Source: a virus. From it: DNA of 64,000 nt. The stretch spans positions 1 to 64,000 of IMG/VR virus record IMGVR_UViG_3300045988_085681. One strand, 5' to 3'. Position numbers and translations under genes: made by a program. A model generated the notes under the pieces. That model made no database searches. It was not told the DNA's origin and saw only the letters and a program-made list of their open reading frames with translations. This document shows, piece after piece, positions 4,307 through 61,580 of the stretch (the first letter of the stretch is position 1; the number at the start of each line of letters is the position of its first letter).

Positions 4307-5860
4307 ATGGAACATTTAGTTCTTATTGGTGTTATCGCAGTCGTTATTATTGTACTGCTTGTTATTATTGCTACAATGTATGTTAAAGCTCCTCCTTCGA
4401 TGGCGTACATTCTTTCAGGTTTTCGTAAGGAGCCACGAGTACTTATCGGTGGTGGTGGAGTAAAAATTCCTGTACTTGAACGATTGGATAAAGTATATCT
4501 TGGTCAAGTAACAGTTGATGTTAAGACTTCACAACCAGTTCCTACTCATGATTTCTTGGATGTAATGGTAGATGCCGTATGTAAAGTTAGGGTAAAACCT
4601 GATACAGAAGGCACTAGACTTGCAGCTAAGAACTTCTTGAATATGAATTCTGTGCAGATTGCTGCTCAGGTGAAAGATTCTTTGGAGGGTAATATGCGTG
4701 AAGTAGTAGGTTCTCTTGACTTAATTAAGATTAACACTGATAGAGATGCATTCTCTGATGAAATTCAGAAGAAGGCAGCTCCTGATATGGCTAAGTTAGG
4801 TCTTGAGATTTTGTCTTGCAATATTCAGAATATTACTGATGAGAAAGGCTTGATCCGTGATTTGGGAGCTGATAATACAGCAGCTATTCAGAAAAATGCT
4901 AAGATTACTCGTGCTAATGCTGATAGAGACGTAGCTAAGGCTCAAGCTGAGGCTGACAATGAAGCTAATGAAGCACGAGTAAAGGCTGATACCATTATTG
5001 CTGAACGTAATAATGAATTAGCTATTAAGAGAGCTGAACTGAAGAGATTGTCTGATATTAAGAAGGCTGAATCTGATGCCGCATATGAAATTCAGCAGCA
5101 GGAGCAGCAGAAAACTATTAATATCAAGACTGTAGATGCTGATATTGAGAAGACTCGTAAAGAACAGACCTTATCTGAGGAGAAGATTAAGATTAAGCAG
5201 AATGAGTATCTTGCAGATGTAAATGCTAAGGCTGATGCTGACAAGTATCAGACAGAAATTGATGCTCAGGCTGCTTTGGAGAAGCAGAAGCGTGAGGCTG
5301 AGGCTGAAGCTTATAAAGCAGAGCAAACTGCTAAGGCTGTAAAAGCTAAGGCTGAAGCTAATCGTTATTCTCAGGAGCAGGAGGCAGCAGGTATTCGTGC
5401 TAAGGGCGAAGCTGAAGCATATGCTACTCAGCAGACCTTAACTGCGGAAGCTGAAGGTACTAAAGCTAAACTTTTGGCAGAAGCTGAAGGTGTGAAGGCT
5501 AAGGGTCTTGCAGAAGCTGAGGCTATGCAGAAGAAGGCTGAAGCATACAGTAAGTATGGCTCTATTGCTGTAATTGACATGCTTTCTAAACTTAATGAGA
5601 AAGTTCTTCCTGATATGGCTAAGTATATTGCTGAGCCTATGAGTAAGATTGGCAATATGACAGTTTATGGAACTAATGGTTCTGAGGCTTCTGGTATTTC
5701 TGGTAATGTGCCTGCTATTATTAAGCAGACTCGTGACATTGTAAAAGATGCCACAGGTGTAGATATGGCAGACATTATGAAAGCTAACACCATTGATGCT
5801 AAGGTTAACAAGAATGTTAACGTTAATGGCGACGTAGAAAACACCAACGTAAATGTATAA
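4307..5860 (+). CDS. SPFH/band-7 (flotillin/YqiK-like) membrane protein with a long Ala/Glu-rich coiled coil
   Basis: N-terminal TM helix. The SPFH core SGFRKEPRVLIGGGGVKIPVLERL...VTVDVKTSQ resembles flotillin/YqiK. The C-terminal half is AEAEA/KAKAE repeats. Confidence 0.7.
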   Translation: MEHLVLIGVIAVVIIVLLVIIATMYVKAPPSMAYILSGFRKEPRVLIGGGGVKIPVLERLDKVYLGQVTVDVKTSQPVPTHDFLDVMVDAVCKVRVKPDTEGTRLAAKNFLNMNSVQIAAQVKDSLEGNMREVVGSLDLIKINTDRDAFSDEIQKKAAPDMAKLGLEILSCNIQNITDEKGLIRDLGADNTAAIQKNAKITRANADRDVAKAQAEADNEANEARVKADTIIAERNNELAIKRAELKRLSDIKKAESDAAYEIQQQEQQKTINIKTVDADIEKTRKEQTLSEEKIKIKQNEYLADVNAKADADKYQTEIDAQAALEKQKREAEAEAYKAEQTAKAVKAKAEANRYSQEQEAAGIRAKGEAEAYATQQTLTAEAEGTKAKLLAEAEGVKAKGLAEAEAMQKKAEAYSKYGSIAVIDMLSKLNEKVLPDMAKYIAEPMSKIGNMTVYGTNGSEASGISGNVPAIIKQTRDIVKDATGVDMADIMKANTIDAKVNKNVNVNGDVENTNVNV

Positions 5861-5874
5861 ACATTAAGTATCAC

Positions 5875-5922: not shown

Positions 5923-7956
5923 ATGGAATACTTAGATTTTAGAAATCTTGTTACAGAAGCATGTAATAAGATGATTAAAGAGAATAAGCATCTCTTTATT
6001 CTTGACACTCAAAAAGAGTTTTTATGGATGGCTTATATGGAATCTTTCCCTGAAGGAGCCGTACGTCAAGAATTTAACTGTGTAAATTGTAAACATTTCA
6101 TTACTCGCTATGGAGCATTAGTCTCTGTAGATGAGAACTATAAAATACATTCTTACTGGGAGGATGTTCACGCTGAAGGAATGTTTGCTAAAGTTATAGA
6201 CAATATGTTACAAGTGCTTAAAAATACTAAAATTAGAAATGCATTTGTTACAGAAGAGACTACAATGGGTTGTAAATGTAATCAGCAGATATTACCTTCT
6301 AAAGAAATAATTACTTGGAATCATTTTTATGCTACTCCTACAAGTAATTTAATTATGGATAAGTCTCAGACTCCAACATTCCGTGCGGGTGCTAAATCTT
6401 CACATGATGTATGGATAATAACTTTATCTAAAATTAACTATAATTCTGTACAAACAGTATTAGACTTAATTGCAGATGATAACCTCTATAGAGGTGACAC
6501 TTATCTACGTCAAGTGAGTGCTTTAAAGACTGCTCTTGATACAATAGAGAATAAGCACTTGGAAGGTTTTGAGTTAGATAATTATGCTTGGATATCTTCT
6601 TGTGTACTTCCTGATGCTGTAACACATATACTTAATAGTGCTATAGGTCAACTTCTTAAAGACATAACTGATACTAACAATGTCGAAAGTTCAGTTAAGA
6701 AATTTGAAGCTATGGTTGCTCCTTATAATTATAAGAGACCTAAGGGTATTATCACTAAAACTCAGGTAGAAAATGCTTATAAAACTGTAGTAGAACTTGG
6801 CTATGAAGATTCTTTAGAGCGTCGTCATGCTAAAGTAGAAGATATATCTATTGAAGATGTTATCTTTGTAAATAGAGAAACTCGTAAGAGAATGTTAGGA
6901 GGATTTGATTCTCTTATGAATGAAACTTCTAATACTAGCAAAACTGCTACAGACTTTGAGAAGACTGCGATTCCAACAACTATGGAAGAGTTCCTTAATA
7001 ATATTGTTCCTAAGGCTAGTAAGCTTGAATTATTCTTTGACAATAAGTTAAATAATAATTTAGTAACTCTTACTGCCCCAGTTAATAAAGAAGCTCCTTC
7101 TATGTTTAAATGGAATAATGGGTTTGCTTGGGCATATAATGGTAATATTTCTGATGCTATTAAACAACGTGTTAAAGAAGTAGGAGGTAAGGTAGATGGC
7201 TATATGAGAATCTCTCTTCATTGGTATAACTACGATGATTTGGATTTACATATGAATAGCCCTTATGGACACATTCATTATAGTAATAAAGCAAACCTTC
7301 TCGATGTAGATATGAATGCCTGTGGAGGTAGTGCTTTTGAAGAACGTAATAATCCTAAGAAATTCTCTCGCAATGCTGTAGAAAATATCATTTTCTCAGG
7401 AATTCCTAAAGCAGGTACTTATAAAGTATTTGTTAACAACTATGCTAAAGTTGAAAATATTGATTTAGGATTTGAAGTAGAAGTAGAACTCAATGGAGTT
7501 GTTCATACTTATGTATATAACAAAGACATTCCTGATAAAAGCGATGTTTCAGTATTAGACTTTACTTCTAATGGACGTGAAGTTATTTTTACTAAAGAAC
7601 ATTTAAGTAGTACTACAGCATCTAAAGAAATTTGGGGAGTAAAGACTCAGAACTTTGTTGAAGTGTCTGCTATATGTTTATCTCCAAATTACTGGGGAAA
7701 TAATAAGGTAGGTGCTAAGCACTATTTCTTTATGCTGAAGGGTTGTAAGAATCCAGATGCTGTTCGTGGATATTTTAATGAATATCTTAAAGACGAACTC
7801 ACTAAAAATCATAAGAGAGTATTTGAAGTATTAGCATCTAAAGCTTTGACTCCTTATGATGATAATCAGATGAGTGGTTTAGGATTTATAGCTACTTCTC
7901 GTAATTCACTTATGGTTAGAGTAGATTCAGGTAAAATTTATAAAGTAAACATTTAA
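5923..7956 (+). CDS. large hypothetical protein (677 aa)
   Basis: Long ORF. Cys pairs near the N-terminus (NCVNCKHF, GCKCN). No family recognised. Confidence 0.55.
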   Translation: MEYLDFRNLVTEACNKMIKENKHLFILDTQKEFLWMAYMESFPEGAVRQEFNCVNCKHFITRYGALVSVDENYKIHSYWEDVHAEGMFAKVIDNMLQVLKNTKIRNAFVTEETTMGCKCNQQILPSKEIITWNHFYATPTSNLIMDKSQTPTFRAGAKSSHDVWIITLSKINYNSVQTVLDLIADDNLYRGDTYLRQVSALKTALDTIENKHLEGFELDNYAWISSCVLPDAVTHILNSAIGQLLKDITDTNNVESSVKKFEAMVAPYNYKRPKGIITKTQVENAYKTVVELGYEDSLERRHAKVEDISIEDVIFVNRETRKRMLGGFDSLMNETSNTSKTATDFEKTAIPTTMEEFLNNIVPKASKLELFFDNKLNNNLVTLTAPVNKEAPSMFKWNNGFAWAYNGNISDAIKQRVKEVGGKVDGYMRISLHWYNYDDLDLHMNSPYGHIHYSNKANLLDVDMNACGGSAFEERNNPKKFSRNAVENIIFSGIPKAGTYKVFVNNYAKVENIDLGFEVEVELNGVVHTYVYNKDIPDKSDVSVLDFTSNGREVIFTKEHLSSTTASKEIWGVKTQNFVEVSAICLSPNYWGNNKVGAKHYFFMLKGCKNPDAVRGYFNEYLKDELTKNHKRVFEVLASKALTPYDDNQMSGLGFIATSRNSLMVRVDSGKIYKVNI

Positions 7957-9171: not shown

Positions 9172-9252
9172 GTCTAGATAACCAAGTGGTCAACGGCAGC
9201 AAGCTGTTAACTTGCCCCGAAAGGTTCCTAGGTTCGAATCCTAGTCTAGGCG
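9172..9252 (+). tRNA. tRNA, anticodon GUU (Asn) by manual folding, with an unusually long variable region
   Basis: Acceptor gtctaga/tctaggc; anticodon stem gcaag/cttgc with loop cTGTTaa; T-arm ctagg-ttcgaat-cctag; 12-nt variable region. D-arm is weak. Confidence 0.5.
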
Positions 9253-9323
9253 CAATAATATATGCCTCTTATTTCTAAGGTTAGCTACCTTCTCGAAAAG
9301 AAACGTGTACACAAGAGGCGCCT

Positions 9324-9400
9324 GGAGTATTAAGCCCTGTTGGTAAGGGAACTAGACTGTCACTCTAGTAAAACTAAGGGTTCGAGTCCCTTATATTCCG
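9324..9400 (+). tRNA. tRNA-Asp (anticodon GUC)
   Basis: Acceptor ggagtat/atattcc; anticodon stem ctaga/tctag with loop ctGTCac; T-arm aaggg-ttcgagt-ccctt. Confidence 0.65.
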
Positions 9401-9545
9401 CAAATAATGGAGAGGACCTAGCATTTAACTAGGCGGTTGTTAGAGGTAGCGGTGGCGATCCACGAGTATGCCTGATAGCTCAATGTATTATTAGAATATG
9501 GTCACGATAGTTCGCCCGTCTAATGCCATATTCGCTTTTATTTAA

Positions 9546-9618
9546 GCTTCTATAGCACAATTGATAGTGCAGCACTCTTGTAAAGTGCAGGTTATTGGTT
9601 TGAGTCCAATTAGAAGCT
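9546..9618 (+). tRNA. tRNA-Thr (anticodon UGU)
   Basis: Clean cloverleaf. Acceptor gcttcta/tagaagc; D gcac/gtgc; anticodon stem gcact/agtgc with loop ctTGTaa; T-arm attgg-tttgagt-ccaat. Confidence 0.75.
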
Positions 9619-9630
9619 CTTTATTTATAT

Positions 9631-9703
9631 TTGAGGTGAGTGAAACGGCTTACACGTCTGTCTCATAAGCAGAAAACAGTGGGTTCAACTCCCACACCTC
9701 GAA
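9631..9703 (+). tRNA. tRNA with CAU anticodon (Met, fMet or Ile2)
   Basis: Acceptor ttgaggt/acctcga; anticodon stem tctgt/gcaga with loop ctCATaa; T-arm gtggg-ttcaact-cccac. Confidence 0.65.
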
Positions 9704-9709
9704 CTAAAC

Positions 9710-9745
9710 GGTTATTGGTCTGAGTCCAATACCTACAACTAATTA
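9710..9745 (+). other. truncated tRNA 3'-half fragment (near-copy of the tRNA-Thr T-arm region)
   Basis: cggttattggtctgagtccaatacctaca versus aggttattggtttgagtccaattagaagc in tRNA-Thr; no 5' half upstream. Confidence 0.4.
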
Positions 9746-9759
9746 AAAAAATAAATAAT

Positions 9760-10237
9760 ATGAAAAAAAACTTTTAATTATCAATCTGACGCAAACTTTT
9801 ATGATAAAAAGGATTTTATTATAGCTGTTTTAAAAAGCAAAATAAATAGGTTTAAAGAGTATGATGCTGAAAGAAAAAAGCATTATGCGGGACTAGAACA
9901 AAAAATCGGAGAATTAGAATCCTATATAGATGAATTAGAAAATGGACTTAGTATAGATTCTTTAAATAATAAGATTCAGTCTTTAGAAAATGAGATTGAA
10001 AAACAAAAACTTAAAATTAAAGAATTACAAGTTAAAGTCAATATATCTTTATTTGATGATACTAAGTCTTTTAGAGAATTAGAATCTATATCAAATAATT
10101 TAAAGAACTTTAATAGCATGAAATTAGCTAATAAAGCCCTCAAAAAACATCTTAAAGATAATAAAAATACTATATCTGATTTAATATATAAATTAACACA
10201 AGCTAAACTTAAAATAAAACAATTAACTGGAGAGTAA
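9760..10237 (+). CDS. coiled-coil protein, frameshifted at an A8 homopolymer (possible pseudogene or sequencing error)
   Basis: ATG at 9760 is followed by an A8 run and stops after 5 codons. The +1 frame then runs open for about 157 codons of heptad-like sequence (LENEIEKQKLKIKELQVKV...) with no ATG until near its end. Confidence 0.35.
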
Positions 10238-10247
10238 TCTCCAATTT

Positions 10248-10321
10248 GGGCTCGTAGTTCAGTTGGCTAGAACGCTACTTTTGCAAGGTAGATGTCGTGG
10301 GTTCGAGTCCCACCGTGGTCC
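10248..10321 (+). tRNA. tRNA-Ala (anticodon UGC), with acceptor-stem mismatches
   Basis: gggctcg-ta-gttcagttggctagaac-g-ctact-ttTGCaa-ggtag-atgtc-gtggg-ttcgagt-cccac-cgtggtc. Two mismatches in the acceptor stem (G3:G70, U5:U68). Confidence 0.55.
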
Positions 10322-12966: not shown

Positions 12967-13190
12967 ATTATCAAAAAGCTAATCAAGTATCTTTATTAGT
13001 AGAATTAATTAAATCTTCTGAAATAGTATCTAAAGAATATTCTGAAGCACATATACCAGAAGATTTAATTTCTAATATAAAGATATTGTGTATGAAAGAT
13101 AGCAGTTTTAAAAGAAGTTTCTATAGTATAATGCAGAAACTTGGAAAGAAATATTTAGATATTTATATAAATAAATTATCAGCATTATGA
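12963..13190 (+). CDS. hypothetical small protein
   Basis: ORF track; overlapping start and stop. Confidence 0.35.
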   Translation: MNYQKANQVSLLVELIKSSEIVSKEYSEAHIPEDLISNIKILCMKDSSFKRSFYSIMQKLGKKYLDIYINKLSAL

Positions 13191-13690
13191 ACTTAATTTG
13201 GTTGAAATTAATAAAGCGAATCTTAACTCATAAGTATTATGTTGCTAAATATTGCTTTCAAATAGGATTATATTGGCAAGGTATTACTCATGATTTGTCT
13301 AAATTTAGTTTTACAGAATTTTCAAGAGCTATTAAGTATTGGGATGATAAAATGAGCTCTTTAGCGAATGAGCGCAGAATATTAGGATATAGTCAAACAT
13401 TCCTTCACCATAGAGGAAGGAATCCTCACCATTATGAATATTGGATACATTCCTTAGATAATGGAGGAATTCCTGCTAAAATGCCTAAAAAATATGTTCT
13501 AGAACTTATATGTGATTATTTAGCAGCAGCTAAAACATATGGAGCTGACCCTAGAAGAGAATATACATGGTGGCTTAAACAACAGCCTCATATGAAAATC
13601 CACAAAAAAACTAAGAGTTATATAACTGAAGTGTTTTATAAATATAGTATAGGTTTAACATTAAAAGAATCAATTAATGGAAATTATTAA
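13187..13690 (+). CDS. hypothetical protein
   Basis: ORF track. His-rich motif HHRGRNPHHYEYW; family not recognised. Confidence 0.45.
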   Translation: MNLIWLKLIKRILTHKYYVAKYCFQIGLYWQGITHDLSKFSFTEFSRAIKYWDDKMSSLANERRILGYSQTFLHHRGRNPHHYEYWIHSLDNGGIPAKMPKKYVLELICDYLAAAKTYGADPRREYTWWLKQQPHMKIHKKTKSYITEVFYKYSIGLTLKESINGNY

Positions 13691-14519
13691 TGCAACTGAT
13701 GGCTATAAGCTTGGTCATCATCGTATGTACCCAGAGGGTACACAAATGGTCTATAGTAACTGGACTCCTAGAAGTAATCGTTACTTCCCAGAAGCTACAG
13801 AAGGTTCTGTAGTATTTGGTATTCAGTACTTTGTAAAGAAGTATTTGATAGAGGAATTTAACAAATGGTTTGCTCTTCCTAAGGAAGAAGCTATTAAGCA
13901 ATTTGCTTATCGTGTAGGTAACTTTGTAGACCTTAATCAGGTTGGGACAAAGCATATTGAAGAACTTTATGATTTGGGGTATCTTCCTATTGAAATTAAA
14001 GCTCTTCCTGAAGGTTCTATCTGCCCTATAAGAGTGCCTATGATGACTATTAAGAACACTCTCCCGGACTTCTTTTGGTTGACTAATTACTTGGAAACTT
14101 TAATTAGTTGTACTCTATGGCTTCCTTGTACTTCTGCAACAAGTGCTCGTCTCTATAAAAAGAGACTTATGGAACATGCTAGAAAGACTGGATTCCCAGA
14201 GGAAGTAAATCTAGGTTTCTCTTGTCACGATTTCTCAATGAGAGGTATGGCAGGACTTGATGCTGCTATTATCTCCGGTATGGCTCATATGACTTCATTC
14301 TGTGGTAGTGAAACAATTCCTGCTATTGAAGCAGTAGAGCATTATTACGATGCAAATGTTACTGAAGAACTTGTAGCTGCAACTGTCCCGGCTTCAGAAC
14401 ATTCAGTGGCTTGCTCTACTATTAGTGATTTTGAAGATAATGTAGAAGAAATAATCTTAGATGATTTTGGTAAATTAATTGGATATATTGATAAATATGG
14501 GGACAAAAATTTGTTCTAA
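13677..14519 (+). CDS. nicotinamide phosphoribosyltransferase family (NAMPT/NadV-like or Namat-like), N-terminal part
   Basis: ATDGYKLGHHRMYP matches the NAMPT N-terminal TDSYK.THY.QYP. LPIEIKALPEG, WLTNYLETL and VPASEHS match the NAMPT core. Confidence 0.75.
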   Translation: MEIINATDGYKLGHHRMYPEGTQMVYSNWTPRSNRYFPEATEGSVVFGIQYFVKKYLIEEFNKWFALPKEEAIKQFAYRVGNFVDLNQVGTKHIEELYDLGYLPIEIKALPEGSICPIRVPMMTIKNTLPDFFWLTNYLETLISCTLWLPCTSATSARLYKKRLMEHARKTGFPEEVNLGFSCHDFSMRGMAGLDAAIISGMAHMTSFCGSETIPAIEAVEHYYDANVTEELVAATVPASEHSVACSTISDFEDNVEEIILDDFGKLIGYIDKYGDKNLF

Positions 14520-14595
14520 TAGCAAAAAGAGTGTTTCTGTTATAAAAATTTACAGCCTTTATGGGCTATTGATAATTTGAAAAAAGCGTATAAAT

Positions 14596-15438
14596 ATGAA
14601 AATTCAAAAAGCGTCTGAAGAGGACAAAAAACTTATTGGAGAATTATTGTCAATTAAAAGATTGATAAATGAATTATATCCTATTGGAATTGTATCTATA
14701 GTTAGTGATACTTATGATTTTTGGAGAGTGGTAGAACGTATTCTCCCTCGTCTGAAAAAAGACATTATGAAGCGTGATGGTCGAGTAGTAATTCGTCCTG
14801 ATAGTGGTGACCCAGTGGATATTATTTGTGGTCTTCGTACAAATCCTCACTATCATACTGCTATGAAAGAGGGTAAGTACTACTGTGATTTCAATCCATT
14901 TATGGATGATGATGAGAGTCATTATGTAGAAGTATCTGAAGGTCAGTATTATGGAGCATATTATATGCTAGGTAAAATCTTTGGATGGAATACTACTGTA
15001 AATGATTATCGTTATCCAAGTACTAAAGTAGGTTTGCTCTATGGAGATTCTATCACTCTAGAGCGTCAACGTGATATCTATGCTCGATTGGAAAACGCTC
15101 ATATGGCAGCTTGTAACCTCGTTCTCGGCATTGGATCTTATACTTATCAGTTTAAGAGTAGAGATTCTTTGGGTTTCGCAGTTAAAGCGACCGCATGCAC
15201 CATTAATGGTAAACTTATAGAAATCTATAAGCACCCAAAGACTGATGATGGAACAAAGAACTCTCTTAAAGGTCTTATTAGAGTTGAAGAAGAGAATGGT
15301 AAGTATGTCGCTTATGACCAGCAGACTAAGGATGCAGAACTGCAAGGTTGTCTTAAAACAGTCTTTGTAGATGGAGAATTAGTAAGAGAATATTCTCTTT
15401 CTGAAATTCGTGAACGTGTAAATTCAACATTAGTATGA
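14596..15438 (+). CDS. nicotinamide phosphoribosyltransferase family, C-terminal part (separate ORF in another frame)
   Basis: IVSIVSDTYDFW...VVIRPDSGDPVD matches NAMPT VSVVSDSYD...LIIRPDSGNPLD. Begins 76 nt after the N-part stop, in a different frame. Confidence 0.75.
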   Translation: MKIQKASEEDKKLIGELLSIKRLINELYPIGIVSIVSDTYDFWRVVERILPRLKKDIMKRDGRVVIRPDSGDPVDIICGLRTNPHYHTAMKEGKYYCDFNPFMDDDESHYVEVSEGQYYGAYYMLGKIFGWNTTVNDYRYPSTKVGLLYGDSITLERQRDIYARLENAHMAACNLVLGIGSYTYQFKSRDSLGFAVKATACTINGKLIEIYKHPKTDDGTKNSLKGLIRVEEENGKYVAYDQQTKDAELQGCLKTVFVDGELVREYSLSEIRERVNSTLV

Positions 15439-15929
15439 TAGAAATTGTTAATGGAGATTTACTTCAGTCAAATTTACCTCTTATAGCCCATCAAACTAAT
15501 TGTTTAGGAGTAATGGGGGCAGGTATAGCTAAGGCTATTAAAAATAAATGGAATAGCGTATATACACGATATGCTAATTATTGTAAATATTTTAAATATT
15601 CTAAAGAATTATTAGGGAAATGTCAAGTATGTATAACAGGAGATGAACCTATTAATCTCGTAGCTAATTTATTTGGAGAATATTCTTTTACTGAATCAGT
15701 AGCTCCTTTTGAAAATAGACATACTGATTATGATGCTCTTAAAAAAGCTTTATTAGATTTAAAAGACTTTTGTAAAGATAACGAGATTACAGAGATAGGC
15801 ATTCCTTATAAATTAGGATGTGGATTAGCAGGAGGAGATTGGGACGGAGTAGTTTATCCTATGCTCCAAGAACTTTTTGCTAATGATTTAACAATAACTC
15901 TTTATATTTATAAATTATGCAACAATTAA
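15435..15929 (+). CDS. macro domain protein (ADP-ribose binding/processing)
   Basis: IAHQTNCLGVMGAGIAKAI is a macro-domain signature (N..G.mG.GiA). Confidence 0.7.
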   Translation: MIEIVNGDLLQSNLPLIAHQTNCLGVMGAGIAKAIKNKWNSVYTRYANYCKYFKYSKELLGKCQVCITGDEPINLVANLFGEYSFTESVAPFENRHTDYDALKKALLDLKDFCKDNEITEIGIPYKLGCGLAGGDWDGVVYPMLQELFANDLTITLYIYKLCNN

Positions 15930-16726
15930 ATTTAGTACATTTAGAAGATAGTGATATTAAATATTCTATCTCTAGATTCCCTGATGGGGAAGTTCAAATT
16001 TCATTAGAAGAATTCAGCCATAAGGAGCAAGTATTAGTGCAATGTAGAATTACTAATGCTGAAGACTTATTTATACTTATGCAAGTTTTAGATATCCTTG
16101 ATAGACATGAAGTTCTATATAAAATAAATATCTATTACTTAATGAGTATGAGAATGGATCGAGTAATGGTTTTCAATAGACCATTTACTTTAAAAATAGT
16201 CTTAAATGTATTAAAAAATTGTAATGCAGAGACTATTGAAATTTTAGAACCTCATTCTGATGTTTATTATGATCCTAGATTCGGAGTTAAATTCATGCCT
16301 CTTTACGCTGAAAAGAATCCATCTAATAATACTTGGAAAGAATTTCAATTAGTTTTCCCAGATGCTGGAGCTGAAAAGAGAAATGAATTCAGATATAATC
16401 GTAAAGCAATTACTTGTAGTAAAGTTCGAGATTTAACTACTGGAAGAATCTTAGAGATTAAAATAGATAATCCTGAAAATATACAGGATAAACCTCTGTT
16501 AATTCTTGATGATTTATGTGATGGTGGAGGTACTTTTTGTGGTATTGCTAAAGCATTTAATGCTTTAGGTATTTCTAAAGAGCGTTTATATATTGCAGTT
16601 ACTCATATGGTAAATCCTAAAGGTATAAAGAATCTGTCAGAAAACTTTAATCACGTATGGTTTACTAACTCTTATAAAGACTGGGACAATCTTCCTGAGA
16701 ATGTTACAATGTTTAAGGTTATCTAA
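15917..16726 (+). CDS. PRPP-synthetase-like phosphoribosyl-pyrophosphate-binding enzyme (Prs/Adps-like)
   Basis: PRPP-binding loop KPLLILDDLCDGGGTF, as in ribose-phosphate pyrophosphokinase and type I PRTases; 269 aa. Confidence 0.55.
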   Translation: MQQLNLVHLEDSDIKYSISRFPDGEVQISLEEFSHKEQVLVQCRITNAEDLFILMQVLDILDRHEVLYKINIYYLMSMRMDRVMVFNRPFTLKIVLNVLKNCNAETIEILEPHSDVYYDPRFGVKFMPLYAEKNPSNNTWKEFQLVFPDAGAEKRNEFRYNRKAITCSKVRDLTTGRILEIKIDNPENIQDKPLLILDDLCDGGGTFCGIAKAFNALGISKERLYIAVTHMVNPKGIKNLSENFNHVWFTNSYKDWDNLPENVTMFKVI

Positions 16727-16867
16727 TGTATATTTTGGGACTTATTATAACTATTATTTTGGTAATAATTATAATTGATCCAAGATTAGATATTACAGAT
16801 AACCAATGTATATTGTGGTATTCAAATTTAGAAGGAGAACGTTGTTATTTAATACTTTGGAATAAAA

Positions 16868-17194
16868 ATGATCATTATAAATAAAAATGAATTAGACCCT
16901 GACTTAATTCATGACATTAATTTAGAGTTAGAAGCATTATTTACAGATAATAGAACTTGGGAAATTAGTTCTAGTACTGGAGATTTAGATGATGCTTCAG
17001 ATATACAAATTGTTATTAAAGGTGAGGGACATTGCTATATTTCCACAATAAGTGATACTGAAGAATACGTCAGAGATTTATTAAATGGTTATAGAAAAGC
17101 TCATAGTTTTGATACTTTTTGTATGTCTACAACGTATTTTGATCCTGAAAAGAACGGAATAGTATTTGAATATGCAGATTACATATCTTTATAA
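16868..17194 (+). CDS. hypothetical acidic protein
   Basis: ORF track. Confidence 0.4.
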   Translation: MIIINKNELDPDLIHDINLELEALFTDNRTWEISSSTGDLDDASDIQIVIKGEGHCYISTISDTEEYVRDLLNGYRKAHSFDTFCMSTTYFDPEKNGIVFEYADYISL

Positions 17195-17196
17195 CT

Positions 17197-17610
17197 ATGT
17201 TACAGATTTATACTGATGGTGCTTATAAATCTTCTATTGACCAGGGAGGTATTGGAATAGTATGGATGAAGGATGATAAAGTATTTAAAAAATACTCTAA
17301 AGGCTTTAAACATACTACTAATAATAAAATGGAATTAATTGCTATGCTATGTGCTTTTAAGTCCATTAAAACTCCAATAGATGAAGTAGAATTTATAAGT
17401 GACAGTCAATATGTATTAGGATGTCTTACTAAAGGATGGAAGAAAAAAAAGAATGTAGAGCTCTGGAATATTTTAGATAAAGAATATGAAAGAGTTAAAT
17501 CTTTAATAAAAAATATTAAATTTACCCATGTTAGGGGACATCAAGATTGTTTTGGTAATAATCTAGCGGATGAATTAGCTAGTAATGCTAGTTTAGAATT
17601 ATTAGAATAA
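17197..17610 (+). CDS. rnh: ribonuclease H
   Basis: IYTDGAY...GGIGIV, NNKMELIAM and HVRGHQDCFGNNLADELA match the RNase HI catalytic motifs. Confidence 0.75.
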   Translation: MLQIYTDGAYKSSIDQGGIGIVWMKDDKVFKKYSKGFKHTTNNKMELIAMLCAFKSIKTPIDEVEFISDSQYVLGCLTKGWKKKKNVELWNILDKEYERVKSLIKNIKFTHVRGHQDCFGNNLADELASNASLELLE

Positions 17611-46002: not shown

Positions 46003-47211
46003 ATGACAAAAAAGGAAAAATTTATTACTCAATCAATTGAAAAATTTGGTGACAAATTTGATTATTCTAAAGTAACAGATATTAATAATAAAGAAATAGA
46101 TAAAATTACAATTATATGTCCTATACATGGCGAATTTGAGACTACTCCTAAATCATTTTTAATATCTAAATATGGTTGTAAAAAATGTGCTAACCAACAA
46201 AAAGGAAAACATTATCGAACAGATAAAAATAATTTAAGTTCTATTGATACACATATCCCACATATAGAAAATCCTATTATATCAAAATCTTTAGTTGTGG
46301 GTACTGTATACTGTTTTATTAATAGTATTAATGGTAAAAAATATATTGGAGAAACAGTAAAGAAAGATTATACTGTTAGATTTAATGAACATAGAAGTAA
46401 AAGTGAAAGAGGAGTAGTAACTTATTTCTATAATGCTATCCGAAAATATGGATGGGATGCTTTTAATAAATATATCATATATCAAACTGAACCATATGAA
46501 GATACTGAAGAGAATAGAAAAAAATTAAATGATATTGTAAATAAAAAAGAAATTGAGTTTACTAATAAATACAATACTACAAATCCTAATTTTGGCTATA
46601 ATTTAACAAAAGGAGGAGACGGAGTTTTAGGTTACCATTTTTCTAAAGAAACTAGAGAAAAAATGAGTAAATCTCATCAAGGAGAAAAACATTGGAATTA
46701 TGGTAAAAGAAATGAAGGTAAATCTAAAGCAATTTTACAATTTGATTTAGATGGAAATTATATAGCAGAGTTTCCATCTATGGCAGAAATTACACGACAA
46801 TTAGGATATAAAGCTAATAATGTATGCAGATGTTGTGATAATTTAATAGGTTCTTATATGGGATATATTTGGGTACGAAAAGATGATTATTATGAAGGCT
46901 ATATTCAAAAATACAAATCAAGAGTAAAATGTAAATCTAATGATAAGGAAGTTTTACAATATACTTTTTTAGGAGATTATGTAGCTTCCTATATAAGCTG
47001 TGCAGAAGCAAAAAGAACTTTAAAAATGGGATATAGCCCTTCAGGAGCTGCCTCTGGAACTGATTTTTCAGCAGGAGGTTATATATGGATATATAAAAAA
47101 GATTTTACAGAAGATTTATTAAAAGAAAAATTAGAGCTTGTAAAAAGTAGTCGTAATTATAAAAAAATTGTGAGTAATCTTAGACAGGCAGCTTTAATTA
47201 ATCGTAATTAA
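46003..47211 (+). CDS. GIY-YIG homing endonuclease with NUMOD-like DNA-binding repeats (free-standing)
   Basis: VYCFINSINGKKYIGETVK...R..EH matches the GIY-YIG core. KETREKMSKSHQGEKHWNYGK is NUMOD3-like. N-terminal Cys pairs. Confidence 0.7.
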   Translation: MTKKEKFITQSIEKFGDKFDYSKVTDINNKEIDKITIICPIHGEFETTPKSFLISKYGCKKCANQQKGKHYRTDKNNLSSIDTHIPHIENPIISKSLVVGTVYCFINSINGKKYIGETVKKDYTVRFNEHRSKSERGVVTYFYNAIRKYGWDAFNKYIIYQTEPYEDTEENRKKLNDIVNKKEIEFTNKYNTTNPNFGYNLTKGGDGVLGYHFSKETREKMSKSHQGEKHWNYGKRNEGKSKAILQFDLDGNYIAEFPSMAEITRQLGYKANNVCRCCDNLIGSYMGYIWVRKDDYYEGYIQKYKSRVKCKSNDKEVLQYTFLGDYVASYISCAEAKRTLKMGYSPSGAASGTDFSAGGYIWIYKKDFTEDLLKEKLELVKSSRNYKKIVSNLRQAALINRN

Positions 47212-48859: not shown

Positions 48860-49203
48860 TGATTTATTTTATTATAGAGGATTCTCATTTTGGCTCTCAT
48901 GTAGAACAAATATCTACTGATTTTAATAAATTGAGAGAAAATTTTCCTGATGAAGTAATTTACACTACAGATTATATGAATGTAGATGACACTTTATATA
49001 ATATAATAGATTATTCTAATATGCCATATAAATCTTATGATGGTACTGAAATAACTAATTGTTACTTATATCATGATAAATTTTATGAGTGTGATGAAGA
49101 TTTGCCGGAAGGAGTAAATCCAGATGAATATATGTGCACTTTTTATAGGACTTACACAAAAGGTTATTTAACTAAAACATGGCATAAAGATGGCTGGGTA
49201 TAA
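48859..49203 (+). CDS. hypothetical protein
   Basis: ORF track. Confidence 0.4.
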   Translation: MIYFIIEDSHFGSHVEQISTDFNKLRENFPDEVIYTTDYMNVDDTLYNIIDYSNMPYKSYDGTEITNCYLYHDKFYECDEDLPEGVNPDEYMCTFYRTYTKGYLTKTWHKDGWV

Positions 49204-50014
49204 TTTAATTACAGACGATAGTGAAGCACTACAAGCTTACCTAAATAACATTACTCATTCTACCCCATTATCTTTAGAGGAAGAGAAAGAATGCGCTGAC
49301 ACTGGAGATTGGGAGAAATTAGTAAATGCTAATTTAAAGTTTGTAGTAACTGTAGCTAAAAAGTTTCAGAATAAAGGACTACCTTTATCGGATTTAATAG
49401 CTGAAGGAAATGTAGGTCTTATTCATGCTAGCCGCTTATATAAAAGTGAATATAATGTTAAATTTATAACTTATGCTGTATGGCATATAAGTGAAGCTAT
49501 TCGTAGAGCTATTCATTATAAAGCAGATACTGTTAGAGTTCCTGTAAGTCAAAAACTTACTTATAATAAGGCTGCTAAAGTTATAAATAAATATTGGCAA
49601 ACTGAAGATAGACCTCCATCAGATGAAGAGTTGGAAGAAGCTACTGGTAAAACTATGAAACAAATTAATGGAGCTATAAATGCTAAAAAAGTATGTATGT
49701 CTTTAGACACTCCATTAGGTAGTAATGATGATGACAGAGACTCTACTTTAGTAGACATTGTTAAAAACAATAATAGTCCTCTAGCAGATAATAATATAGA
49801 ACAGTCTTATAAGACTAATGTTATTAACAAAGTTTTAAATGGACTTTCTAATAAAGAACATGACATAATAATTTTATGCTATGGATTTACTGGGCAAGAA
49901 TATACTCCTGAACTTATATCTCCTTTATTTGGGTGTACACCAGAACGTATCAGACAAATTAGGAGAGAAGCAGTCAAGAAACTTAGAAAAAGAAAAATTC
50001 TTAAAAACATTTAA
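49190..50014 (+). CDS. RNA polymerase sigma-70 family factor
   Basis: Region 2 LIAEGNVGLIHASRLYK...FITYAVWHISEAIRRAI. Region 4 HTH LFGCTPERIRQIRREAVKKLR. Confidence 0.8.
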   Translation: MAGYNLITDDSEALQAYLNNITHSTPLSLEEEKECADTGDWEKLVNANLKFVVTVAKKFQNKGLPLSDLIAEGNVGLIHASRLYKSEYNVKFITYAVWHISEAIRRAIHYKADTVRVPVSQKLTYNKAAKVINKYWQTEDRPPSDEELEEATGKTMKQINGAINAKKVCMSLDTPLGSNDDDRDSTLVDIVKNNNSPLADNNIEQSYKTNVINKVLNGLSNKEHDIIILCYGFTGQEYTPELISPLFGCTPERIRQIRREAVKKLRKRKILKNI

Positions 50015-51432
50015 ATGATTTATTTAGTTACCAAGGTTAAAGCTTTATTCAAATCTTCTAAATATGAATGTATTTCCATAGAAAGAAGTAAGGAAATTAT
50101 TAATTCTATGAAAAAAATTAGAGGATTAGATACTGAAACTATGGGACTAAATCCCCATACTAAAGCATTATTAACAGTTCAGATAGGTACTAAAGAAAAT
50201 CAAGTAGTAATTGATTGTACTACTATAAACATTTGGGAATATAAAGATATATTAGAAGATTCTACTATTCTATATATTTTAGCTAATGCTAAATTTGATA
50301 TTCAATTCTTCTTTAAACATAACATTATATTATCTAAAGTATGGGATGTAATGTTAGCTGAAAAGATTAGATATTTGGGATATCCTAAAGGTAGTTTCCA
50401 TGCTGACTTAAAGACTCTTGAATACAAGTATCTTAATAAATATATGGATAAAACTGTTCGAGGTAAAATTACTAAAGTTGGTCTAACTGAGGAAGTAATA
50501 GTTTATGCAGCTAATGATGTAGTAGATTTGGAAGATTTAATGAATGCCCAAATAAAAGCACTAGAAAAAGAAGATTTGGTAAAGGCAGTACAATTAGAGA
50601 ATAGATTTGTTATCCCATTGGCTTATATGGAATGGTGTGGAGTAAAATTAGACGTAGAAAAATGGAAAGCTAAAATGGTAAAAGATGCTAAACGTTTAAA
50701 GGTTGCTCTAACTAAATTAAATAATTGGGTAGTAAAACACTATGGAAATGATTCTAGATTTACTAAGGTAGATTTACAAGGGGATTTATTTTCAGGATTT
50801 AATACTGACCCACAGTGTACTATAAATTGGAATAGTGCAGCTCAAGTAATTCCATTATTTAAAGCTATTGGAATAAATACTTCTACTGTAGATAGTAAAA
50901 CAAAGAAATTAAAAGATTCTGTAGATGCTAAATTATTAGAGCCTCAAGCTAAGGATTTTGAAATTCTTCCTATTTATCTAGATTATAAGGAAGCTCAAAA
51001 AGTATGTTCTACTTATGGACAGAACTGGTTAGACCAAATAAATTCCGAAACTGGTAGAGTATATACTAAGTTTAATCAGTTAGGTACTAATACTGCTAGA
51101 ATATCTAGTGGTGGAAAAGATAAGAATGCTAAAATAGAATATGTAAATTTTCTTAATCTTCCAGCAGATCCAGAAACTAGAAGTTGTTTTATTGCAGAGA
51201 AAGGTAACTCTTGGATTTCCATAGATTATTCAGGACAAGAGTCCTTTATTATGGCTTCCATTTCTAATGATAAAGCTTTAATACATGAATTAATGGAAGG
51301 AAGTGGGGATTTGCATTCTCTAACTGCTTATATGAGTTATCCTGATCAAATACCAAGAGATACAAAAATAACAGAAATTAAAGAAAAGTATCACCATCTT
51401 AGACAAGAAGCCAAAGGCATAGAATTTGCCAT
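50015..51432 (+). CDS. family A (T7-like) DNA polymerase, exon 1 (3'-5' exo domain, palm motif A, start of motif B)
   Basis: Exo I GLDTETMG; Exo III YAANDV; motif A SIDYSGQESFIMAS; motif B begins RQEAKGIEFAI. The ORF then stops, and the motif continues in exon 2. Confidence 0.7.
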
Positions 51433-52662
51433 TAATCCTTAAATTATTGCAATTTTTATTTTGATATAATTCGCTATAAACTATATTACTATTAATAAAT
51501 ATTTTAGTAATATGGATATAGAAAAAGAATTGAAAATCAAAAACTTGTATGAAAAAGATACAAAGATTAGTGAAATTTTAAAGATTTGTAAATGTAGTAG
51601 TGCTACAGTAAATAAAGTAAGAGAAAAATATAATTTACCGAAAAGAAGGAATTCTCCCTCAAAGATTCCTATAAATGAATCTTTAGTAGTAAAATTATAT
51701 ACCGAAGGAGTAATATTAACTGAAATTACAAAAACTTGTCATTGCAGTACCAACACTGTCTCATCAATACTAGATAAATATAATATTCCTAAGCGTTCTC
51801 AGAGAATAAATAAAAAACCTAATAAGGATTTAAGTAAATTTATGGATTTAACTTCTCCAGAAACTCAATATTGGATAGGATTTATATGTGCAGATGGTAA
51901 TATAAATTATAATCCAGAAAAGAGGGCTTATAAAGTTTCTCTATTTAGTAAGGATGAAGAAGTCATAATTAAATTTATAAAATATTTTGGAGAAAATACA
52001 GTTTGTAGAAGTGACAGACCTACAGGTATAAAAGAAGCTTATATATGCTCTAAAGAACTTTGTGAATATTTTATTAATATATTAAATATTACCCCTAATA
52101 AGTCTCTTACATTAAATCCTAATATTGAGTATACTAACAATTTTATTTTAGGCTATTTTGATGGAGACGGAAGCATTAGAAACAGTTCAGAAAAACAAAT
52201 TAGATACGAGTGTAATATTACTTGTGCTAGTAAAATATTTCTGGATAAAATAAAAACTATACTTGCTAAAAATGGTATTTACTCTATTATTTATCAACAT
52301 ACTGATTGTAATGCTTACAAAATTAGAATAGATAGAAAAAATGAATCTGAAAAATTTTATCATTTTTTATACAAAGATGCAGTAGTTTGTTTATCAAGAA
52401 AATTGAAAAACTTTGTGGCACTCTATGGAAACATAGGGAATGAAAAATTGGGTGAATTGCAGGAACTTAAGGAAAATCTGCAGCCAAGCCAACCTTTAAC
52501 AAAGTTGGAAGGTTCAACGACTAACTCTTGAAACTTCGTAAGAAGAATATAATAGAGACACGAGCGCCCAACACCTAAACTATAAAGTAAGGTGATGAAA
52601 TAGTCTAGCCTATATGGTAACATATAGAGTCTCAGATAAAGAGCTGAGAGTTAATACAAGCG
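51433..52662 (+). other. group I-type intron 1 in the DNA polymerase gene (boundaries approximate)
   Basis: Polymerase motif B is split (FAI | NYGG). Exon 1 would end on U and exon 2 would follow a G. The insert contains a free-standing LAGLIDADG ORF. Confidence 0.55.
51512..52531 (+). CDS. LAGLIDADG homing endonuclease (intron-encoded) with N-terminal HTH repeats
   Basis: Two dodecapeptide motifs, YWIGFICADGNI and LGYFDGDGSI. Duplicated HTH-like N-terminus. Confidence 0.75.
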   Translation: MDIEKELKIKNLYEKDTKISEILKICKCSSATVNKVREKYNLPKRRNSPSKIPINESLVVKLYTEGVILTEITKTCHCSTNTVSSILDKYNIPKRSQRINKKPNKDLSKFMDLTSPETQYWIGFICADGNINYNPEKRAYKVSLFSKDEEVIIKFIKYFGENTVCRSDRPTGIKEAYICSKELCEYFINILNITPNKSLTLNPNIEYTNNFILGYFDGDGSIRNSSEKQIRYECNITCASKIFLDKIKTILAKNGIYSIIYQHTDCNAYKIRIDRKNESEKFYHFLYKDAVVCLSRKLKNFVALYGNIGNEKLGELQELKENLQPSQPLTKLEGSTTNS

Positions 52663-53131
52663 AAATTACGGTGGTGATTTTAACACTATTCATCGAAACA
52701 AAGGTATCTCTATAGAAGAAGCTAAAAAAATATATGAAAATTATATGTCGGGTTTCTCAGGATTAGCTAAGTATCAAGAATATTGTAGAAAAATAGTAAT
52801 GGAAAAAGGCTATATACTTCTAAATCCTATAAGTAAATATAGAGCACATATATATGATTTTGAATCTCTACGTTCAATGCAAGAAAAAATGCAAGATAGG
52901 GAATTTTGGAAGTATTATAGAGAAATGAAGCGAGAATCTCCTAACTGTGATACAGTACAAGAAGTACGAGATTTCTTTAAGAAAAAGGGTGAATGTGAAA
53001 GGAATAGTATAAATTATAGAATACAACATACTGGAGCTTTATGTTATAAAGTAAGTATGATTTATTTCTTTAAATGGATAGTAGAAAATAATCTTTTTAA
53101 TAAGGTTTTAATTACTGTTACCCCCTACGAT
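52663..53131 (+). CDS. family A DNA polymerase, exon 2 (rest of motif B, O-helix region, up to motif C)
   Basis: The open frame begins before the annotated ATG: NYGGDFNTIHRNKGISIEEAKKIY aligns with Pol I IYGMSAFGLARQLNIPRKEAQKYM. RIQHTGALCYKVSMIY aligns with PIQGSAAD. Ends ...VLITVTPYD. Confidence 0.6.
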
Positions 53132-53996
53132 AAATAATCTTGTCGTAGTAAAACGATGTTAATTGCTTGGAACTCCTAAAGATTTAATTACTAAATTATT
53201 GAAATAATAAGCCAGTAAAAATATTAAATATGATTTTACCTCAGTTAAAAGAAATGGACAATAAGCAGCTTTATAATTTTACAAGAGAACAAACTCAAGT
53301 ATTTTTAACAGGATTGCTAGGTGATGGGTGTATATCTACTACAAATAGTGGTAGTTATATTTATACTACAAGTTGTAAACATCTTGAATATTTAGAATTT
53401 AAAAAGAAATTATTAGGTAAAGGAAATATTAAACTTCAAGAAAGAAATGGTTATAGTCAAACTCCTATATATACTATGTATGGGGGAGCTTACCCAGAAT
53501 TATTTGAGTTTAAAGAATTTACTGTTCAAGATGTTATTGAAAACTTAGATTTACTTGGGTTAGCATTATGGTTTTATGATGATGGCAGCCTTCATAAAAG
53601 AGATTTATATTATAATTTAAATACTCAAAAGTTCCCAAAGTATATACAAGAAGGAATTTTTATTCCATGGTTTGATTCCTTGGGCATTAAAGCTAATTTA
53701 AGACACGATATAAAAAGAGGAAAAGAATTGTATTATTTAGGAATTAATAAATATGAAGGAGCTAATATTATTAGTGAAATACTATCACGTTATCCATTAA
53801 ATTGTTACTCTTATAAATTATGGAGTTCAGAGACTATCCTGAAATGGAGTAAGCTGCAAGAGCAGGTGAAAAGCATCGATAAAAATCTTACTAATAGGCA
53901 ATTAGCTTATAAGTGGAGATTTTTATAAGATATAGTCCGAACCTATATGAAAGTATAGGAGAATATATGGAATCGATATATTCGTAACAATATATG
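53132..53996 (+). other. group I-type intron 2 in the DNA polymerase gene (boundaries approximate)
   Basis: Splits the gene at motif C. Contains a second LAGLIDADG ORF. Exon 2 ends on U and exon 3 starts after a G. Confidence 0.5.
53230..53928 (+). CDS. LAGLIDADG homing endonuclease (intron-encoded)
   Basis: Motifs FLTGLLGDGCIS and LALWFYDDGSL. Confidence 0.7.
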   Translation: MILPQLKEMDNKQLYNFTREQTQVFLTGLLGDGCISTTNSGSYIYTTSCKHLEYLEFKKKLLGKGNIKLQERNGYSQTPIYTMYGGAYPELFEFKEFTVQDVIENLDLLGLALWFYDDGSLHKRDLYYNLNTQKFPKYIQEGIFIPWFDSLGIKANLRHDIKRGKELYYLGINKYEGANIISEILSRYPLNCYSYKLWSSETILKWSKLQEQVKSIDKNLTNRQLAYKWRFL

Positions 53997-54158
53997 GAGA
54001 TTAATTGTGAAGCACCTATAGAAATAGCTGAAAAAGTAGCTATTAGACTTCATGCTATTATGGTTAGAGCAGGAGAAATATTTTGTACTAGATGTAAGTT
54101 AGATGCAGATATCTCTAGATGTAAAGATGGGACATTACCTAATTACTGGATTCATTAA
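53997..54158 (+). CDS. family A DNA polymerase, exon 3 (C-terminus)
   Basis: DEINCEAPIEIAEKVAIRLHAIMVRAGEIFCTRCKLDADISRCKDGTLPNYWIH aligns with the T7 DNAP C-terminus DEIQVGCRTEEIAQVVIETAQEAMRWVGDHWNFRCLLDTEGKMGPNWAICH. Confidence 0.6.
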   Translation, partial: EINCEAPIEIAEKVAIRLHAIMVRAGEIFCTRCKLDADISRCKDGTLPNYWIH

Positions 54159-54159
54159 A

Positions 54160-54393
54160 ATGGAAATAACTTACATTGGTAACGACTATTCATTATATAT
54201 CGGCGGCAAAGAATTCGTTGATATAGATTACGACAAACAAAAAGAAATTTGTCATAAATTAGTAGATAAAGTTTCCGAAGGAGTTTTACAAAGATTTATA
54301 GAAATTGCTTGTACCGGAATGGGCGAGTATGAACAATTAGATTATTGTGAAACTCATGGAGAATTTGTTGATAAATACGTAATAAATATATGA
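54160..54393 (+). CDS. hypothetical protein
   Basis: ORF track, trimmed to the internal ATG just after the polymerase stop. Confidence 0.4.
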   Translation: MEITYIGNDYSLYIGGKEFVDIDYDKQKEICHKLVDKVSEGVLQRFIEIACTGMGEYEQLDYCETHGEFVDKYVINI

Positions 54394-61323: not shown

Positions 61324-61580
61324 AATTAAGTATTACTATTATTATTTACTTTTAAAGCCTAAGCGAACATACTAGTTGCTGGAATACTTGATAATGTGAA
61401 TATAGAGAGCTACTTAACAGGATCATCTAAGAAGTTTGGATTAGTTGCCATAGTAAACATATTTTTTAATTCAGTAACAGGATAAGTGTATACTGGCACA
61501 CTTATATCTCCTGAAGCTGATACTACACTAAAAGGTCCACAGAAATTACTAGGAGACTGCTATGCGCCTTTAAATATTCC

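Follow-up and report, generated by a model that had tools for sequence, protein, structure and literature searches.

The NAD+ reconstitution pathway NARP1 of phages consists of two enzymes, Adps and Namat (10.1101/2024.02.11.579819). In an extended form, NARP1-AP, the operon also encodes a macro-domain, Poa1p-like phosphatase (Adpp), which converts ADP-ribose-1''-phosphate (ADPR-1''-P), which is made by aRES, a RES-domain defence, to ADP-ribose (ADPR) (10.64898/2026.01.28.702374). The operon tested in that preprint (Osterman et al., January 2026) comes from Vibrio phage Gary, whose macro-domain protein proved to have ADPR-1''-P phosphatase activity; 15% of NARP1 phages are reported to carry the macro gene, the criterion being a gene with a macro domain (PF01661, PF14519 or PF20016) no more than two genes away from the NARP1 core. 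As for the other pathways, the Nampt clade of NARP2 has no adjacent Prs-like gene in the published survey (10.1101/2024.02.11.579819), and NARP3 consists of a PnuC-like transporter and a NadR-like enzyme (PMC13464706). Here we analyse a gene cluster at positions 13677-16726 on the plus strand of the virus record IMGVR_UViG_3300045988_085681. The sequence examined, hereafter the window, is the first 64 kb of the record, about half of a genome of ~120 kb. The cluster is very probably of the NARP1-AP type, with its namat gene split in two by a homing endonuclease.

An original prediction made from the sequence had described this interval as three adjacent genes, for a NAMPT-family enzyme, a macro-domain protein and a phosphoribosyl pyrophosphate (PRPP) synthetase-like enzyme, and had likened their composition to that of NARP1. 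Its coordinates and its three enzyme families are correct, the matches being far beyond chance (Pfam; 254 and 198 bits to a Namat structure in the PDB; TIGR01251, E=3e-19). The gene count has to be revised: there are four tightly packed open reading frames (ORFs) whose neighbours overlap or abut, and the NAMPT-like gene, which had been taken as intact, is in two pieces. The N fragment (13677-14519, 280 amino acids) matches Pfam NAMPT_N (E=1.4e-9) and positions 1-60 of the NAPRTase profile, and the C fragment (14596-15438, also 280 amino acids) matches positions 72-238 of the latter (Pfam E=2.6e-23). The two are in different frames, with TAA-TAG and 76 nucleotides between them. The start of the macro-domain gene (15435-15929, 164 amino acids) overlaps the stop of the C fragment in ATGA, and the Adps-like gene (15917-16726, 269 amino acids) overlaps the macro gene by 13 nucleotides, so that adps and namat lie within one operon on one strand. 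Each of the four ORFs is closed by TAA or TGA and none contains an internal TAG; they are therefore readable under either genetic code. The likeness to NARP1 stands on the clamp motif of Namat, the PP loop of the Adps type, the adjacency of the genes and the lack of a nicotinamide mononucleotide (NMN) adenylyltransferase (NMNAT) in the window; it does not extend to the form of Namat, which is a single polypeptide in all characterised examples and two ORFs here.

Both Namat ORFs are intact, without frameshift or stop, and retain the key residues. Judged by alignment scores, the halves lie nearer to validated Namat than to Nampt. The N fragment scores 254 bits against SpbetaL1 Namat (PDB 9w5x) and about 135-140 bits against mammalian NAMPT, and the C fragment scores 198 bits against 9w5x and 57 bits against human NAMPT. 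The closest annotated relatives are the Namat proteins of crAss-like Bacteroides phages, with 55-57% identity. The native core of the N fragment (13677-14414) ends in ...VPASEHSVAC, the catalytic histidine being residue 242; D8, Y10, R35, F186, S187, R189 and H242 align with D13, Y15, R40, F189, S190, R192 and the catalytic histidine of SpbetaL1 Namat. The C fragment carries VVIRPDSGDP (R306 and D308 of SpbetaL1) and LYGDSIT. Across both fragments the catalytic-core residues are kept, with the sole exception of D215 of SpbetaL1, which is E212 here. Namat has a selectivity-clamp helix with the motif G-S-X-phi-X-phi-X-phi-T-R-D, in which X is aromatic and which is absent from Nampt (PMC12774641). 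GSYTYQFKSRD in the C fragment fits this motif, with aromatic residues at positions 3, 5 and 7 and a serine in place of the threonine. The stacking residue of the clamp loop (SCL), which is Arg, Lys or Tyr in Namat (PMC12774641), corresponds to R35 in TPRSNRYFPEA, aligned with R40 of SpbetaL1.

At least 12 protein clusters (278-295 amino acids, 62-91% identity), found with the N fragment as query, share a common end point and an extra tail of ~34 residues after ...EHSVAC. In protein and DNA alignments this 34-codon tail and its TAA follow the N core in all split alleles and in no unsplit one. In the window the tail (14415-14519) reads STISDFEDNVEEIILDDFGKLIGYIDKYGDKNLF followed by a stop, and forms the 5' part of an inserted endonuclease cassette. 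Three relatives (L005, L006 and L013) have an intact ORF of 209-213 amino acids between the halves, overlapping both of them; it matches PHROG 1035 'endonuclease VII' (E=5.5e-22) and phrog_2255 HNH, and its sequence includes ...WHIDHIRPC...QKECFHYTNLQPLWAIDNLKK. Neither the tail nor the endonuclease gene is present in L002, L003 and P0005, in which namat is unsplit. The presumed target of the endonuclease in an unsplit gene lies around ...GAACATTCAGTGATGTGTGCTGGAGG.... Since the endonuclease is intact between the halves in relatives and absent from the unsplit genes, it was the insertion of the cassette that split namat. The insertion point is four codons past that of the catalytic histidine, and the cassette donates the tail and stop codon of the N fragment as well as the start codon of the C fragment. 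A repeat scan of the region found no repeat relevant to the insertion.

The endonuclease gene of the window is dead. Similarity to the intact ORFs of relatives identifies its remains at 14497-14618 on the plus strand, where 23 and 99 nucleotides are left and ~0.5 kb has been deleted. Positions 14497-14519 are the first 23 nucleotides of the gene (ATGGGGACAAAAATTTGTTCTAA), and the junction 14519/14520 joins them to its last 99 nucleotides, which read QKECFCYKNLQPLWAIDNLKKAYKYENSKSV between two stops; the leading TAG is a former sense codon. The 76-nucleotide gap between the Namat halves is the C-terminus of the endonuclease, QKECFCYKNLQPLWAIDNLKKAYKYENSKSV with its stop, and the C-fragment start codon lies within the 3' end of the remnant. 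Remnants are also found in L008 and L015. The intact endonuclease ORFs contain in-frame TAG codons, nine in L005 (5827-6468) and two in L013 (910-1551), most of them at positions where L006 has Gln or Glu, and the Namat halves that flank these ORFs have none. Such codons may restrict translation of the endonuclease to the phase when TAG is decoded. Within the window's remnant, at 14549-14576 and 20 nucleotides upstream of the C-fragment ATG, is a sigma-70-like promoter match (TTTACA-16-GATAAT, 10/12); the match is to the sigma-70 consensus, from which Bacteroidota promoters differ, and the counts of promoter-like matches across the region are at chance level.

The cassette and the gene that it interrupts differ in their degree of divergence. 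Between the window and L013 the nucleotides of the N core are 72-87% identical, and those of the tail and the endonuclease ends 97-98% identical, with 98% for the window's remnant against the 3' end of the L013 endonuclease. Among distant split alleles, synonymous divergence (pS) is far lower in the tail than in the core, and nonsynonymous divergence (pN) in the tail is about equal to pS. On this pattern the cassette appears to be mobile, or to have been so until recently, and the tail is conserved because the moved cassette DNA has a recent shared ancestry and not because of selection on its protein sequence. For the same reasons (low tail pS, pN about equal to pS, and 97-98% against 72-87% identity to L013), we rejected the idea that the 34 residues are a selected assembly domain.

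Other ways in which one enzyme might be made from the two ORFs were examined and rejected. A split intein does not fit: with the C fragment beginning only ~7-14 residues before the native helix, a C-intein could not be accommodated; a Cys follows EHSVA in unsplit genes too; and tail, endonuclease and C fragment do not share a reading frame. For a group I or II intron, an Rfam scan of 13000-17500 gave no relevant match, and the 76-nucleotide spacer is endonuclease coding sequence. As to translational bypass or frameshifting that would join the halves, a single TTC codon (14535-14537) is available for landing and leads to an early stop, and the halves are ~600 nucleotides apart in relatives.

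Namat genes of two further relatives depart from the usual form in ways of their own. In L002 (MT836666.1, 5380-7365) an AAA-ATPase domain (Pfam AAA, E=7.5e-13) is in frame with the unsplit Namat in a single ORF of 661 amino acids, and this Namat has an internal C-terminal deletion. In L004 (cr85_1, 4352-5872) the RefSeq Namat consists of two coding sequences (50 and 448 amino acids), with a different break near the N-terminus.

In Aeromonas phage Aeh1, nrdA is split by mobE and its fragments still form an active enzyme (PMC3045599). We think it probable, with moderate confidence, that the cluster of the window is likewise a working operon, namat-adpp-adps, of the NARP1-AP type, in which the halves of the split namat assemble into active Namat; for the activity of the two-piece Namat, taken by itself, we would put the chances slightly above even. 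The main rival account is possible, though unlikely: the endonuclease insertion inactivated Namat, the cluster has become a decaying pseudo-operon that is being lost piecemeal, and the copy in the window is merely undeleted so far. What speaks against decay is, to begin with, that both 280-residue halves are intact and keep their catalytic and clamp residues. Furthermore, the substitutions among close relatives sharing the split indicate strong purifying selection on both halves. Between the window and L015 there are 12 synonymous and 2 nonsynonymous differences in the N core (pN/pS 0.05) and 11 and 4 in the C fragment (pN/pS 0.09); between the window and L014 the N core has 12 and 5 (pN/pS 0.11). 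Binomial P values under neutrality range from 1.5e-7 to 2e-5 (1.5e-7 and 1e-5 for the two halves against L015), and neighbouring genes are under less constraint than the halves (Fisher p=0.006). Tail divergence equals core divergence between the window and L015, consistent with a split that predates their separation. Finally, three independent deletions of the endonuclease gene (in the window, L008 and L015) all retain its last ~76-99 nucleotides with the C-fragment start, so that the start and ~76 nucleotides upstream of it have survived each time. Deep dN/dS among distant split alleles was considered as proof of selection after the split and set aside as uninformative, because the cassette is younger than those alleles.

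Several observations weigh against a working enzyme and lend weight to decay. Close relatives with 94-99% nucleotide identity to the window carry at least five different deletions or truncations of the cluster. L001 (MT835492.1) lacks 13283-15341, with its junction at a 7-bp GCAAGGT repeat, L014 lacks 14408-15278 and L015 lacks 14993-15838; P0006 fuses residue 209 of the N fragment to the C-terminus of Adps, and P0011 is truncated at residue 196. Deletions so varied among close relatives mean that the locus is dispensable or decaying in this lineage. The endonuclease gene is itself decaying, the insertion adjoins the catalytic histidine, and NARP1 is an accessory, so that inactivation of namat need not stop a selfish element from spreading. 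The low pN/pS could in part come from recombination with intact alleles. The tail evolves neutrally, with no sign of a selected assembly domain. D215 of SpbetaL1, which contacts nicotinamide, is Glu here, and the same Glu is found in every gut-phage relative, unsplit ones included. Assembly and activity of the fragments are likely but predicted. The placement of the Adps-like protein is supported by motifs and model scores, and PHROG 619, tried as a discriminator, does not separate Adps from Prs (E. coli Prs 193 bits, window protein 208). Lastly, our view covers 64 kb of the genome.

The macro-domain protein matches Pfam Macro (PF01661) with 36.4 bits (cut-off 22), and its gene lies between namat and adps, that is, within two genes of the NARP1 core. 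It also matches PHROG 335 'phosphatase' (E=3.9e-39), which is common to the homologues of phages Dax and FADO. Its best phage homologues are those of Vibrio harveyi Thalassavirus phages, and it is 38% identical to gp176 of Vibrio phage Dax, which is located between Adps and Namat. Dax gp176 served as the proxy for Adpp in this comparison, Dax being of the same genus as Gary and its gene in the same operon position. Yeast Poa1p (PDB 6lfu) is matched as well, at E about 1e-4 over residues 5-89. The protein is a predicted ADPR-1''-P phosphatase (Adpp). The original prediction had regarded the macro gene as an unusual extra; it is a known accessory, the defining third gene of NARP1-AP in the preprint of Osterman et al. 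(10.64898/2026.01.28.702374). The accompanying suggestion that the protein could process a phospho-ADPR intermediate agrees with the published function of Adpp (ADPR-1''-P to ADPR), which the window protein is predicted to share.

An alternative, which we regard as improbable, places the macro-domain protein outside the NAD+ pathway, as a separate counter-defence enzyme that strips DNA or protein of ADP-ribose in the manner of DarG or TARG1. TARG1/OARD1 is among its PDB neighbours, beside BT1257 and Poa1p; the NCBIfam antitoxin_DarG model matches its N-terminus with 62.7 bits (E=3.5e-17); and a homologue in FADO (39% identical) does not adjoin Adps or Namat. However, the DarG match spans no more than ~50 residues and falls far short of the cut-off of 250, the gene shares an operon with its two neighbours and overlaps each of them, and the best homologues stand between Adps and Namat in Thalassavirus, where the Gary protein is an established ADPR-1''-P phosphatase.

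The third enzyme is assigned to Adps by active-site motifs and model scores. Adps proteins have a PRPS-like fold, a remodelled donor-binding PP loop (of the DDICDxAASF type) and a catalytic lysine on a beta-hairpin (PMC13586617). The 15917-16726 product shows weak Pfam matches to Pribosyltran and Pribosyltran_N, and its PP loop, DDLCDGGGTF, is of the Adps type (DDICD..; Bas60 DDICDGGRTF, Dax DDISDGGASF), unlike that of Prs (DDMIDTGGT; E. coli DDMIDTGGTL). In alignment, K169 falls on Lys197, the catalytic residue of B. subtilis Prs. Against TIGR01251 (cut-off 113) the protein scores 69 bits (E=3e-19), compared with 119 for Bas60 Adps, 97 for Dax Adps and 423 for E. coli Prs. It is 48-49% identical to the Adps of crAss-like phages. 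In a comparison of Adps with E. coli Prs, its identity is 24-27% to the former and 23% to the latter. We predict that it is an ADP-ribose pyrophosphokinase. A comparison of family models and active-site residues, which had been proposed along with the gene calls, thus comes out for the most part as expected of NARP1: Namat is nearer to that of SpbetaL1 and keeps its residues, and the Adps-like protein has the loop and lysine of its family; the exceptions are the D215 position and the failure of PHROG 619 to discriminate. In a further profile, phrog_12872 (547 positions), the N-terminal part matches the Adps-like protein and the C-terminal part the Namat C fragment, a pattern suggestive of natural Adps-Namat fusions in some phages.

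No NMNAT (CTP_transf_like), NUDIX, NadR or PnuC domain was found by a Pfam scan of 66 further plus-strand ORFs of at least 90 amino acids in the 64-kb window, and NARP2 and NARP3 therefore do not fit. That no NMNAT is visible had been said before and holds for the window. The same scan bears on a very improbable explanation, ordinary salvage resembling NARP2, in which a true Prs would supply PRPP, a NadV-type Nampt would make NMN, and an NMNAT of the host or elsewhere in the phage would complete NAD+. Namat does keep some PRPP-dependent NMN synthesis in vitro (PMC12774641), the window is about half of the genome, and the identity of the Adps-like protein to E. coli Prs is close to its identity to Adps. 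Against this are the presence of the Namat clamp motif, the Adps-type PP loop, a TIGR01251 score below the cut-off, the lack of NMNAT and Nudix domains among the ORFs scanned, and the published survey, where no Prs-like gene adjoins the Nampt of the NARP2 clade. As for the split being a sequencing or assembly artefact of one intact gene, nothing favours this beyond the general possibility that attaches to a single unverified sequence, and it is effectively refuted by the same architecture in many independent assemblies from different samples and by recognisable endonuclease DNA, rather than a one-base frameshift, between the halves.

If the cluster works as a NARP1-AP operon, its course can be drawn from characterised homologues. 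Adpp would remove the 1''-phosphate of ADPR-1''-P, the product of RES-type NAD+ phosphorylases, to give ADPR; Adps would then move pyrophosphate from ATP to ADPR, giving ADPR-PP and AMP; and Namat would join ADPR-PP and nicotinamide into NAD+. By analogy with NrdA of Aeh1, the N and C fragments would assemble non-covalently, probably as a dimer of heterodimers. Together, the three steps would cancel NAD+-depleting defences, RES-type phosphorylases included. On the DNA level, the sequence itself shows that a free-standing HNH/EndoVII-type cassette was inserted in namat and that ~0.5 kb of the endonuclease gene was later deleted in the phage of the window. A broader proposal, which we offer tentatively and hold at somewhat less than even odds, joins three ideas: that the fragments form a non-covalent, active Namat, which would be the first case known of an anti-defence enzyme working 'in pieces' once a homing endonuclease had invaded its gene; that the TAG-containing endonuclease would be translated only after the switch in TAG decoding; and that repeated invasion followed by deletions at microhomologies would be the force behind gains and losses of NAD+-reconstitution genes in populations of gut phages.

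The host is a gut bacterium, probably of the Bacteroidota, judging from the relatives of the phage, and the phage, which is from the human gut, appears to recode TAG. An open frame of 890 codons at 61326-63998 on the minus strand has 28 in-frame TAGs and runs off the window (see also 53929-54393 on the plus strand); it gave no PHROG match with TAG read as Gln. The early genes of the plus strand have almost no internal TAG, and there is no suppressor tRNA among the five tRNAs at 9172-10321. The G+C content of the window is 27-37%, and coding is almost wholly on the plus strand. Around the cluster, antisense ORFs at 13674-13955, 14674-14922 and 15058-15345 are without support and overlap sense genes. 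Terminator-like matches number 5 against 1.4 expected, and none was used, all being inside ORFs or antisense. Directly upstream of namat is a DUF5662 gene (13187-13690), which has the same placement in L002, L005, L014 and L015 and is truncated by the deletions of L001 and L014. It was considered as a NARP1 accessory and rejected, there being no homologue beside the Namat of DAC15 and no literature found.

Namat is not the only gene of the window in pieces. The DNA polymerase A gene is divided over 50015-53928: the exonuclease domain and polymerase profile positions 29-217 are encoded at 50015-51442, a LAGLIDADG ORF follows at 51512-52531, a fragment matching profile positions 260-333 is at 52745-53137, and a second LAGLIDADG ORF is at 53230-53928. 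A free-standing homing-endonuclease-like ORF (46003-47211; NUMOD1, NUMOD3, DUF723; PHROG 314) lies between the genes of a DNA ligase and a metallophosphoesterase. The surrounding replication and nucleotide module (37654-60893) encodes ThyX, dUTPase, a PNK-like phosphatase and dNMP kinase, together with a phage sigma-70 factor (49190-50014) and a protein with a Pfam match to the T7 gp5.9 RecBCD inhibitor (E=9.9e-10).

The NARP1-AP system and its logic have already been published, and the mechanism of gene fragmentation is known too. In the literature searched, no Namat split by a homing endonuclease in TAG-recoding gut phages with operon decay at the population level was found. The main value of the locus is that it provides a well-documented member of NARP1-AP in gut phages that recode TAG and probably infect Bacteroidota, hosts that are far from those of the Vibrio, Bacillus and E. 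coli phages in which the pathway has been studied. Its evolutionary interest is that a selfish endonuclease has cut the gene of the key ligase next to the catalytic histidine, and that the pieces look selected while sister phages shed parts of the operon. Should the two-piece Namat work, it would offer a natural split site for engineering Namat and a second example, after NrdA of Aeh1, of function outlasting gene fragmentation; should it be inactive, the locus would be a snapshot of the loss of a counter-defence gene. Annotation pipelines that demand a Namat of ~500 amino acids would miss or mislabel such split loci.

Compared with NARP1-AP of Vibrio phage Gary, the window has the same three protein families (Poa1p-like macro phosphatase, Adps and Namat) in one operon, and is predicted to act against NAD+ depletion of the ADPR-producing as well as the RES-type (ADPR-1''-P-producing) kind. 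The gene order is namat-adpp-adps here and adps-adpp-namat in Gary, and the window differs further in having Namat in two ORFs and in belonging to a TAG-recoding gut phage. The window proteins are only 24-44% identical to the enzymes of proteobacterial phages, and their activities are predicted from sequence. NARP1 of Bas63 and SpbetaL1 (Osterman et al. 2024; PMC12774641, PMC13586617) shares with the window the Namat core and clamp motif, the Adps PP loop and lysine, and the adjacency of the genes; these are two-gene operons that lack the macro gene, and they encode Namat as one chain of ~490-577 amino acids, with D215 in SpbetaL1 where the window has Glu. NARP2, represented by NadV and NatV of KVP40, is alike in restoring NAD+ through a phage Nampt-family enzyme, but it needs a bifunctional NMNAT/Nudix protein and has no Adps, whereas the window has an Adps-like gene and no NMNAT or Nudix domain.

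The crAss-like Bacteroides phages DAC15, cr85_1, cr111_1 and cr126_1 share the order namat-X-adps with the window, while their Namat is unsplit and about 500 amino acids long. Their middle genes differ as well: that of DAC15, which matches phrog_1238 and weakly HAD-IIIC, was considered as a macro domain and is not one, and in cr85_1 the middle gene is missing. What crAss-like and related phages have between namat and adps is a non-macro gene for ~142-145 amino acids (6484-6912 in DAC15, here L003, which is the copy that was scanned; 7302-7739 in L006), and in L002 a remnant of 64 amino acids with a DFDNT motif is left at 7328-7522. NARP1 may have an alternative accessory phosphatase in this gene. 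For the split itself, the nearest counterpart is nrdA-a/mobE/nrdA-b of phage Aeh1 (PMC3045599). In both, a free-standing homing endonuclease gene stands in a conserved region coding for the active site, and the result is two ORFs with C- and N-terminal tails derived from the element and a new start codon. In Aeh1, assembly has been shown and the tails are essential, whereas in the window activity of the fragments is predicted and the tail evolves neutrally; and the endonuclease is MobE in Aeh1, and HNH/EndoVII-like and decayed here.

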